Below, one piece after another: positions 35,659-38,046 of a stretch of 64,000 nucleotides of DNA. Below the pieces are notes generated by a model. That model ran no database searches and had not been told where the DNA came from. It saw only the letters and a list, made by a program, of their open reading frames with translations. The stretch is from an uncultured Myxococcales bacterium (GTDB lineage Bacteria > Myxococcota_A > UBA9042): the NCBI GenBank assembly GCA_903955385.1, contig CAJBNH010000072.1, positions 40,063 to 104,062 on the forward strand, written 5' to 3'. Position 1 is the first letter of the stretch; each line of letters begins with the position of its first letter. Made by a program: the position numbers and the translations under genes.

Positions 35659-38046
35659 TTACTCCTCTACGTAAGTGCGGACCACGCGTCCCTGATCCTT
35701 GTATTCGCGGTCGCCGGCTTTCGACAGCAGCGGATACGAGATCGGCCCGCCCTCCGATGCCGCCCACACCGCCGCGCGGATGACGGCGTTCTGGATCTGG
35801 CCGCCCGTCAGCTCGTAGTCCAGCGCAAGGTCGCGGAACCTCAAGTCAGCTTCGCGTGGGGCGTCGGCGGGGACCATCACGCGCCACAGTCGCTCGCGCT
35901 CGTCGACTTCGGGCGGCGGGAAGTGGGGCTTGAAGCGGATACGGCGCATGAAGGCTTGATCGATCGATTCGGGGTTGTTGGTCGTCAGGATCACCAAACC
36001 GTCAAAGTCTTCCAGGCGTTGCAGCAGGTAGTTGACCTCGAGGTTGGCATAGCGGTCGACCGACGACTGCACGTCGGTGCGCTTGGCGAACAGCGAATCG
36101 GCCTCGTCGAACAGCAGCGCGATGCCTGAGTCCTGGCTCGCGTCGAACAGCTTGGACAGCCGCTCCTCGGTCTCGCCGATGTACTTCGACACGACCGAAG
36201 CCAGGTCCACGCGGAACAATTCCAGGCCCAGATCGCGCGCCACCAGACCCGCACACAGCGTCTTGCCGGTGCCCGAGGGGCCAGAGAACAGCGACGTCAG
36301 CGCGCGGCCATAGCCCATCGAGCGGCCGTAGCCCTGGTCGTCGAGCACGAACGAAGCGAACTTGCCGAACCGCACCATCTCTTCAAGGATTTCGCGGGTG
36401 TCGTCGGGCAGGACCGTGGTCTCCCAGCGGCCGCGGACGTGGATGCGGGTGGCCAGTCCGGCCAGGCGCGACGACGCCACATCCCGGCAGGATCGCTCCA
36501 GATCCGTCAGGTGCACCGCAGTCGCGTTCGGGTTCCGCTGGCGTGCCGTGGCCGCGGCCAGGTTCACCGCGAGGTCGATCTCGTCGACGCCGAACTTGAA
36601 GACGGCGGCAGAGGCGGCGGCGTCCTCGGCTTCCACGGGTGTCATGCGGTCGGTCAACCGCTCGCGCCACAAGGTCTTTCGCTCTTCCAGCGTCGGCGCG
36701 GCGGTCGGCAGCTCCAGCGCCCCCAGCTCGCGCAGCAGCGCCAGATGCACGCGCGGCGAGAGCCTTTGCCCCTCCTGCCTTGGGCTCGCCGGCGAGTGGA
36801 AGAACATCGTCGTCGTCTCGCCCGACAGCAGCTGCACCAGCGCGGCCAGACGCTCTGCCCCGTGCTCGCCTGCGTCCAGCGACTCACTGTGCTCGAAGAA
36901 AAGCCCTGCGCGCGCCAATCTCGCCCGACCCAGCACGGCCCCGACACGATCCAGCGCGTCGTCGGCCAACAGCAGGTCCAGCCGCACCGTCAGCAGCCCC
37001 TCGCCGAACAGCCGCAGGGCGTCGCGGGCGATGCGGACGGCACCGGCACGCTCGGGGCCCAGCACCAGAAAGCGCCGACGTCCGCGGAATCCTCGCGCCA
37101 GAGCTTCACGCAACGCGGGAGAATGCGGCGAGTCCTTGCCCTGGCCGAGATCCAGCGCGTCGCCCTCTTGCCCGTGCCACAGCACGCCCGGCAAGTCGGC
37201 CAGCGCGACCGGCAGTCCGACCAGATGGCCGCACACGAACCCCGCAGCCCGAAAGCGAATTTGCGTGGTGTCGTCGCCGCCGGCCAGTACCAGACCATAG
37301 CGCCGCAGCGTCGACCGCGACGACAGCGCCTGCAGCACCGCCTTGCCGCGTGCGCCAAACGGGTCGACGGCGTGCGACAGGAAGTCTTCGGGCCAGTGAC
37401 TACGGCCGGTGTCGCGCCACAAGGCACGGTACAGCCACAGGAATTCCGGCACCAGCTCGGGCGCCAGCAGCACCCACAGCAGGTCGCACTCCAGATCCGA
37501 CAGGCCAAAGATGACGCGCAGCTCGTCAAAGCGCTGCGCCGACTCGGTCGTCGGCTGCAGATCGTCGTAAGCGACGGCCAGCCGCTGTTCCATGCGGGCC
37601 ACGAACGCCAGGCGCTCGGGGTCCAGCGCCTCGCCGCGCAGGCAGCGCAGGGCGGTCGAGTCGAGCGTTTGCATCGTCCCCGCCGGCACCGGATTGCGCG
37701 TGGGGTCGTCGACGGGGCGGTCCCAGGGCCGCAGCACCCCCAGGTACCGCTGCAGCATGGCGCGCACACGGTCGAGGTAAGGGGCGAATTCAACGGCGGA
37801 ACCCGACAGCCACGGTCGAGCACCGTCGTCGAGCGGCGGCCCGTCGTCGTCGCGCAGCTCGGCGCGGATCAACTGCCGCAGCACGTCGACCTGCATCTCG
37901 CTCAGGTCGTCGGTGGTGGTCTCGGGGTCGATGCGCGCCTCGAGCAGGATCGCCTTGGCCCGCGCGCGGCTGATGCCGGGCAGGTACGTCAGGGCGGTCT
38001 CGACGGGACGATGCGGCGGAAGTCCTGAAAGTCCGGTGCGTGCCAT
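35659..38046 (-). CDS. uS13-like H2TH domain fused to winged-helix plus tandem AAA+ ATPase (first AAA degenerate; Afp15/Pvc15/SpoVK-like clade)
   Basis: MAR start at 38046. LSDLECDLLWVLLAPEL (WH region), degenerate GPERAG, intact GPSGTGKT (36259-36282), LLFDEAD, DRYANLEVNYLLQRLE, IDQAFMRR. Confidence 0.85.
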   Translation of the reverse strand: MARTGLSGLPPHRPVETALTYLPGISRARAKAILLEARIDPETTTDDLSEMQVDVLRQLIRAELRDDDGPPLDDGARPWLSGSAVEFAPYLDRVRAMLQRYLGVLRPWDRPVDDPTRNPVPAGTMQTLDSTALRCLRGEALDPERLAFVARMEQRLAVAYDDLQPTTESAQRFDELRVIFGLSDLECDLLWVLLAPELVPEFLWLYRALWRDTGRSHWPEDFLSHAVDPFGARGKAVLQALSSRSTLRRYGLVLAGGDDTTQIRFRAAGFVCGHLVGLPVALADLPGVLWHGQEGDALDLGQGKDSPHSPALREALARGFRGRRRFLVLGPERAGAVRIARDALRLFGEGLLTVRLDLLLADDALDRVGAVLGRARLARAGLFFEHSESLDAGEHGAERLAALVQLLSGETTTMFFHSPASPRQEGQRLSPRVHLALLRELGALELPTAAPTLEERKTLWRERLTDRMTPVEAEDAAASAAVFKFGVDEIDLAVNLAAATARQRNPNATAVHLTDLERSCRDVASSRLAGLATRIHVRGRWETTVLPDDTREILEEMVRFGKFASFVLDDQGYGRSMGYGRALTSLFSGPSGTGKTLCAGLVARDLGLELFRVDLASVVSKYIGETEERLSKLFDASQDSGIALLFDEADSLFAKRTDVQSSVDRYANLEVNYLLQRLEDFDGLVILTTNNPESIDQAFMRRIRFKPHFPPPEVDERERLWRVMVPADAPREADLRFRDLALDYELTGGQIQNAVIRAAVWAASEGGPISYPLLSKAGDREYKDQGRVVRTYVEE

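Follow-up and report, generated by a model that had tools for sequence, protein, structure and literature searches.

Loader ATPases of the Afp15/Pvc15 (Cis15) type belong to contractile injection systems, and the published description of Pvc15 gives it two tandem AAA domains, a deviant D1 and an active D2. Here we analysed a gene for a relative of these ATPases in a 64,000-nucleotide stretch of DNA, hereafter the window, from an uncultured Myxococcales bacterium (GTDB lineage Myxococcota_A, UBA9042; GenBank assembly GCA_903955385.1, contig CAJBNH010000072.1, positions 40,063 to 104,062). The encoded protein begins with the N-terminal part of the bacterial ribosomal protein uS13 (RpsM) and continues into the ATPase. 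S13-like H2TH domains are precedents for an extra-ribosomal, nucleic-acid-binding use of this fold, and among eukaryotic AAA proteins Rix7 and Drg1 pull proteins out of pre-ribosomes, a task similar to the one that we tentatively propose here. To our knowledge, a ribosomal-protein domain joined to an enzyme is a great rarity in bacteria, and we know of no bacterial AAA+ unfoldase dedicated to ribosomes.

A uS13-derived domain in front of an AAA+ ATPase

The gene lies on the minus strand, ends with a stop codon at 35659-35661 and is called identically on public contigs. Its translation from 38046 to 35659 reproduces exactly the N-terminus given in an earlier note, made by a model from the DNA letters, which had described 37855-38046 (residues 1-64) as a uS13 module joined to an unfoldase-type ATPase. 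The gene and its N-terminal parts are located as follows.

35659..38046, minus strand: whole gene, 795 residues, uS13-domain/Afp15-Pvc15-type AAA+ ATPase (translation, public contigs, 46 same-length homologue clusters)
37858..38046, minus strand: uS13-derived N-terminal three-helix (H2TH) domain, residues 1-63, helices 15-19, 27-37 and 50-64 (Pfam/NCBIfam, PDB sequence matches, hhalign, fold)
37816..37857, minus strand: variable acidic linker, residues 64-77 (LRDDDGPPLDDGAR), which includes RDDDGPPLDDG (18% mean family identity; predicted local distance difference test score, pLDDT, 51-63)
37729..37815, minus strand: conserved helix, residues 78-106 (PWL..FAPYLDRVRAMLQRYL), matching the native N-terminus of Afp15-type ATPases (77% identity, alignment start of distant relatives)

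Pfam PF00416 (Ribosomal_S13) aligned residues 9-63 of the protein with profile positions 7-61 of 128 and reached E 3.9e-8 and 34.2 bits (cut-off 31) on the isolated 69-residue N-terminal piece; on the whole protein the score was 28.3 bits, just below the same cut-off. The NCBIfam model uS13_bact (TIGR03631) matched at E 3e-9, and the fusion protein did not reach its full equivalog level (37.3 bits vs a cut-off of 130.45). Other families with H2TH or helix-hairpin-helix (HhH) folds were weaker by at least five orders of magnitude (Fpg H2TH, E 0.03; HHH_5, E 0.01), and the Fpg/Nei H2TH family (PF06831) scored 14.7 bits, below its gathering cut-off of 34.7. A phmmer search of the PDB returned 56 distinct sequences at E<=0.01, which were uS13 in every case and aligned ungapped in one register, with alignments beginning at residues 1-9 and ending at residues 55-65. 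When 16 N-domains of the family were compared with 16 Myxococcota uS13 by hhalign, columns 1-64 fell onto columns 1-64 with 98.7% probability and E 4e-16, so that the alignment with uS13 runs without gaps from Met1 to about residue 64.

The fold gave the same assignment. An AlphaFold model of the isolated domain, built from family sequences only, had a pLDDT of 85.3 and consisted of three helices (residues 15-19, 27-37 and 50-68). All of the top 50 PDB fold matches listed for this model were uS13 chains (template-modelling score 0.68-0.77), and the root-mean-square deviation to many uS13 chains was 0.6-1 Å over 53-54 columns. The basic residues R13, R27 and K31, typical of the uS13 HhH, are invariant in the family, and R3 and R29 are mostly kept. 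What follows in uS13, a long helix and a basic tail (profile positions about 62-128), is missing here, and the acidic linker stands in its place. The N-terminal domain is confirmed as specifically uS13-derived, far beyond chance, and the protein is a bacterial uS13 N-terminal piece (about 63 residues, its own Met1 included) fused via an acidic linker ahead of an Afp15-type ATPase.

The description in the earlier note has therefore held up in its main lines. Sequence, profile and fold evidence agree on a uS13 N-terminal module on an unfoldase-type AAA+ ATPase, and the gapless alignment from Met1 for about 60 residues, judged there by eye, was recovered by phmmer and by hhalign (columns 1-64 onto 1-64). 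The HMMER comparison with PF00416, which had been named as a check, was run on the N-terminal piece and gave E 3.9e-8, above the cut-off. The basic C-terminal half of uS13 is indeed missing, the Pfam match stopping at profile position 61 of 128, and the DDDGPP linker is followed, as described, by a winged-helix and tandem AAA body (PF22977, PF00004, AlphaFold/Foldseek). The roles that the note suggested for the module (targeting to the 30S head, mimicry toward uS19/uL5/bL31, decoy or sensor) are conjectures. It did not mention the kinship with Afp15/Pvc15, the degenerate D1, the near-universal presence in one family or the small gene downstream, all of which alter the picture.

Distribution, constraint and origin of the fusion

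Homologues of the same length, 59-100% identical, formed about 46 protein clusters, most of which are flagged PF00416 in precomputed annotation and some of which the JGI pipeline names "AAA+-type ATPase/ribosomal protein S13". Their sources are all metagenome-assembled genomes (MAGs) of Myxococcota from freshwater and groundwater. The fusion is present in 32 of the 37 species-representative genomes of the window's order, which is made up of a single family, in all 14 genera (14/14) and in 23 of the 24 high-quality genomes. It was not found in about 280 other Myxococcota genomes sampled, where the matches to the query were true rpsM at 31-46% identity. The gene is mostly single copy, with a second match in two genomes. 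One MAG (Baikal-deep-G138; L008 and L013, contigs C101 and C91 of G018) was observed to carry two full-length fusion copies, 71-81% identical to the N-terminus of the query, which reflect either duplication or a mixed bin.

Mean pairwise identity within the family was 74% in the uS13-like domain, 18% in the linker, 77% in the next helix (residues 78-106), 63% in the winged helix and D1, and 82% in D2. Codons 1-63 showed a median ratio of nonsynonymous to synonymous substitution rates (dN/dS) of 0.17; their GC content at third codon positions (GC3) was 87%, like that of the rest of the gene, and the family alignment had no conserved internal Met. The domain is translated, constrained and older than the family's radiation; the fusion has a single origin and has been passed on vertically, under purifying selection, beside a normal rpsM.

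That normal rpsM, for a protein of 121 residues, lies on another contig of the genome (C8), followed by open reading frames (ORFs) of the rpsK and rpsD types, assigned by eye. Full-length rpsM (106-115 bits) was found beside the fusion in 23 of the 24 high-quality family genomes, and the 24th held a weak fragment only. The fusion domain is 20-29% identical to the uS13 N-domains of its own family, and BLASTP of the fusion against the genome's own rpsM gave no alignment; because the N-domain of the family rpsM is without the ALTY..GIGR.RAK motif, profile methods and the uS13 of other Myxococcota were used for the comparison. In the true uS13 genes of the family (L001, L041-L062), the widespread ALTYIYGIGR..A..IL signature is replaced by ALRSIYGVGPKVA.DVC, and the fused domain keeps the ancestral-looking motif.

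In a tree of the 64 shared columns, the fusion domains grouped as a single clade (100/100) with a long stem, which falls outside every Myxococcota rpsM sampled and is not nested in the family's own rpsM, and with these 64 columns the tree singles out no donor. Co-evolution of the family rpsM with the fusion was considered and dropped, the rpsM N-domain being barely beyond baseline divergence (52.5% vs 57.8%). No pre-fusion orthologue was found in sister families: the best outside match to the N-D1 part, 30% identical, is an ordinary winged-helix-domain (WHD)-AAA gene followed by a gene for an OmpA/HExxH protein.

Full-text literature searches found no paper on a uS13/AAA fusion. When the family profile was run against 1.84 billion representative proteins, no other prokaryotic fusion of uS13 with an enzyme appeared among the best 150 of 1030 matches; fragments of the family came first and ordinary uS13 next, and the matches of odd length among these 150 were set aside as plant gene-model artefacts or HhH-repeat proteins. 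The view of the earlier note that no such protein had been described is supported by these literature and profile searches, and its remark that the fusion lacks an rpsM-cluster context agrees with the position of the true rpsM, beside its rpsK- and rpsD-type ORFs on the other contig.

The identical protein was found on seven contigs from several independent samples. Public records L007, L009, L018 and L022, which carry this Myxococcota-type gene, are titled as MAGs of "uncultured Enterobacteriaceae bacterium" or "Klebsiella pneumoniae", labels that are probably wrong. An artefact, whether assembly chimera, wrong start codon or chance resemblance, might be read into the whole-protein Pfam score slightly under its cut-off and the empty BLASTP against the genome's own rpsM. 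Against it stand the strong profile and fold evidence for uS13, the dN/dS of 0.17, the GC3 shared with the rest of the gene and the absence of a conserved internal Met, and we give it next to no chance; the chimeric join that the earlier note had raised is ruled out by the seven independent contigs and by conservation in 32 species genomes.

The ATPase body and the genes around it

The remaining parts of the protein are placed as follows.

37270..37560, minus strand: winged-helix N domain (Pfam PF22977), residues 163-259 (E 3.9e-8, 33.7 bits, cut-off 27)
36637..37086, minus strand: D1, degenerate AAA-like domain, residues about 321-470 (AlphaFold secondary structure, Foldseek, motifs)
37036-37059, minus strand: D1 P-loop position GPERAGAV, residues 330-337, without Lys-Ser/Thr (motif alignment)
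35662..36366, minus strand: D2, intact classic-clade AAA domain, residues 561-795 (PF00004, E 6e-26)
36259-36282, minus strand: D2 Walker A GPSGTGKT, G589-T596 (motif alignment)

The full-length AlphaFold model had a mean pLDDT of 81.4 with dips at residues 64-80 and 107-130, and in this model the uS13-like domain appears flexibly tethered. Foldseek aligned the whole model over 520-650 columns with the tandem D1-D2 ATPases Rix7/NVL, Cdc48/p97 and Drg1 (E about 1e-18). D1 probably no longer binds ATP, because GPERAGAV stands at its P-loop position. D2 keeps all of its catalytic and threading motifs: Walker A, the Walker B pair D647-E648 in LLFDEAD, the pore loop K621-Y622-I623-G624, the sensor-1 residue N690 and the Arg fingers R701/R702 are all invariant or nearly so among 50 sequences.

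PF22977 is also present in relatives linked to extracellular contractile injection systems (eCIS) and in the orthologues from the genomes of the family. In the alignment, those relatives that have no uS13 domain start at or shortly before the conserved helix (residues 83-105, …YLDRVRAMLQRYL…), and because they begin there, the uS13 piece and its linker are an N-terminal add-on to a complete Afp15-type protein. By its sequence, the ATPase is a family-specific, diverged paralogue of the Afp15/Pvc15 ATPases that load contractile injection systems, and its distant relatives are encoded in loci of such systems or have different partners downstream.

In the same genome, a complete-looking eCIS locus with Pvc16_N cap, sheath, gp25 and P2_I genes lies on contig C173 (about 23.5-41 kb); no ATPase was seen among the genes called there, not all of which were scanned against Pfam. 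A canonical Afp15-type WHD-D1-D2 paralogue of 728-754 residues is encoded on contig C24 (138080-140344, minus strand), away from the eCIS locus and adjoining a cytochrome-c-biogenesis-like membrane gene. Its D1 P-loop, GPPGVGKS, is intact, and the paralogue shares 40% identity with the fusion protein across the D1 lid and D2. Nearly every genome of the family has one to three such canonical WHD-AAA paralogues (720-780 residues) without the uS13 domain.

Next to the fusion gene, two further features were located.

35386..35655, minus strand: conserved 89-residue partner gene, 3 nt after the ATPase stop (homologue downstream in 18/18 loci)
38055..38060, minus strand: TAACCT, a -10-like hexamer ending 8 nt before the ATG (TAnnnT in related loci)

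All 18 loci whose sequence extends far enough have a homologue of the small gene within about 150 nt downstream of the ATPase, and in 17 of them the two genes share a strand. At L018:10429-10689 the partner gene was observed just downstream of the ATPase on the opposite strand. The partner is a small helical protein of 88-107 residues across the family, 52-74% identical between genera, and at the search sensitivity used its own family (48 clusters) does not reach beyond the same clade of Myxococcota. The 89-residue protein gave a weak match to Pfam Protein C10 (PF14974; 18.1 bits, E 0.003, under the cut-off of 27), and two of four orthologues gave no match; the pairing provides a genomic context for this small protein with its weak resemblance to eukaryotic protein C10.

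The gene pair stands in variable surroundings. The fusion gene is divergent from a 2-hydroxyacid dehydrogenase gene, and the neighbours include serA-like, Big_5-protein, FtsX-permease, recO, murC and rpsA genes, elsewhere purA and ftsZ, or ClpB. In four Pfam-annotated contexts, no eCIS gene lay within 8-10 kb of the fusion. Between the pair and murC, two of the four annotated loci (L004, L026) carry genes for a lipoprotein (413-549 residues) and a Cys-rich repeat protein (1093-1096 residues); in the window this slot (about 33000-34700 and 34700-35300) is taken by Y1 transposase, nucleotidyltransferase and DUF2442/DUF4160 genes. The lipoprotein had no tblastn match anywhere in the genome, and the Cys-rich giant had repeat-level paralogues only. 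Both were rejected as members of the invariant unit.

No Shine-Dalgarno sequence was found upstream of the ATG, either at positions 38047-38110 of the window or in related loci. In 12 of 17 related loci a TAnnnT hexamer begins 12-15 nt ahead of the ATG, and a TTGxx element often precedes it by about 17 nt; a generic sigma-70 promoter scan did not call the TAACCT hexamer of the window. This arrangement suggests that the mRNA may have no leader or a very short one, in which case translation would be fixed at Met1.

Possible roles and comparison with known systems

We favour, with rather less than even confidence, the reading that the uS13-like domain is a flexibly tethered targeting module that would bring the unfoldase to RNA or to the ribosomal partners of uS13. 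The protein would assemble into a Cdc48/Pvc15-like hexamer and thread a client polypeptide through the pore of its D2 ring, and the six uS13-like domains would serve as flexible targeting arms. These arms would most likely still bind targets of the uS13 N-domain, namely structured RNA, in particular the h41/h42-uS19 site on the 30S head when that site is vacant, or the bridge partners of uS13 on the 50S, and the small partner could be an adaptor or a client of this RNA- or ribosome-directed protein remodeller. Such remodelling is favoured because the basic residues typical of uS13 are kept and because the gene behaves like a housekeeping core gene. A narrower form, which we hold to be doubtful, is a ribosome-directed AAA+ remodeller in bacteria, whose arms would dock on uS13-less 30S heads or on uS19/uL5/bL31 and whose D2 would extract or unfold a bound protein. 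If this were true, the protein would be a bacterial counterpart of Rix7/Drg1, made from half a ribosomal protein fused to an escaped injection-system loader.

Several observations weigh against a targeting module of this kind. The GIG of the HhH hairpin has become G(V/I)S and the RNKR stretch has become PxRP, and the domain is only 37-45% identical to the N-domains of other Myxococcota uS13 and has a long stem branch in the tree; the surface of the domain may by now serve another purpose. In ribosome structures the C-terminal extension of uS13, which is missing here, supplies much of the binding to the 30S. In addition, a contractile-injection-system locus is family-wide (gp25 in 35 of the 37 genomes), and presence or absence cannot separate the fusion from the injection system because gp25 and the canonical paralogues are both near-universal in the family.

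The altered hairpin and the long stem branch would fit a change of partner, in which the uS13 fold was re-purposed as a protein-protein module for the 89-residue protein or another client and the two genes encode an unfoldase with its adaptor or substrate, with no role at the ribosome or on RNA. The linkage of ATPase and small gene in 18/18 loci and the confinement of both families to one clade point the same way, as do related modules in which an ATPase gene is followed by its cargo gene, one with an eCIS_core (DUF4157) gene and another with an OmpA/HExxH gene downstream. However, the basic residues typical of the RNA-binding HhH of uS13 are invariant, and the winged-helix N domain was already available for recognising clients; we regard this explanation as unlikely on balance but as one to be taken seriously. 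The protein might also be a specialised loader acting in trans for the contractile injection system of the lineage, its added domain recognising cargo (possibly nucleic acid or a ribonucleoprotein) or a docking site on the particle. Its membership of the Afp15/Pvc15 family by sequence is in keeping with this role, and so are the eCIS locus on C173, the near-universal gp25 and the lack of a visible ATPase among the genes called on C173, some but not all of them scanned against Pfam. Yet nearly every genome has canonical paralogues without uS13 that might do this work for the injection system; in none of the loci examined do eCIS genes adjoin the fusion, and its identity to those paralogues is only about 30-40%. 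A loading role of this sort is, in our judgement, improbable.

A conflict system is a further candidate, in which a uS13 mimic would act as decoy or sensor, baiting a phage or toxin factor that attacks ribosomes and triggering the ATPase. AAA ATPases of this clade do occur in defence systems, PADLOC gave only generic IetA/TRIP13 matches to D2, and toxin-antitoxin and transposase genes lie nearby in the window. But these mobile and toxin-antitoxin neighbours are missing from other loci, and no effector domain was seen in the protein. The near-universal, vertically inherited pattern of a core gene argues against a defence decoy, since a gene that is mostly single copy, syntenic in 14/14 genera and absent from the other sampled Myxococcota is the opposite of patchy defence genes, and we consider the decoy very improbable.

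Throughout its history, this bacterial family has kept half of uS13 on a threading ATPase, one that has left its usual place in phage-tail-like injection systems. If the domain still recognises the uS13 site or the partners of uS13, as the favoured targeting reading would have it, the protein offers a directly testable candidate for a bacterial machine that spends ATP on assembling ribosomes, controlling their quality or taking them apart; otherwise, it illustrates cleanly how nature can re-use a ribosomal fold as a targeting module and how loader ATPases gain new jobs.

Among described systems, the Fpg/Nei middle domain, NFACT-N, Topo VI-B and H2TH_5 are ancient and remote relatives of the added domain, which share the fold superfamily and gave matches at E 0.03-0.07, below cut-offs. 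With bacterial uS13 itself, the fusion shares the three helices and the positions of the MAR start, LP, ALTY, G, R..AK, D.L.E and R57, whereas residues about 65-120 are gone, and with them the long helix and the basic tail extending to the P site, and the gene stands outside the rpsM-rpsK-rpsD cluster. The eukaryotic type-II AAA proteins Rix7/NVL, Drg1/Afg2 and Cdc48/p97 were the best fold matches of the whole model and have the same D1-D2 tandem layout of the classic clade, but they are only 16-20% identical, carry other N domains and have both rings or the other ring active; this likeness is architectural and is not evidence of shared function. With the Afp15/Pvc15 (Cis15) ATPases, the fusion shares the PF22977 winged helix, a deviant D1, an active classic-AAA D2 with its second region of homology and, counted after the add-on, a length of about 700-780 residues. 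Identity in D2 is 40-46% with eCIS-type relatives and with the canonical paralogue of the same genome; for the N and D1 parts it is only about 30% with any relative from outside the family. Unlike those ATPases, the fusion protein has lost the D1 P-loop entirely, is not encoded within or next to injection-system loci or DUF4157 cargo genes, has gained the uS13 domain with its linker, and is paired with the 89-residue protein.

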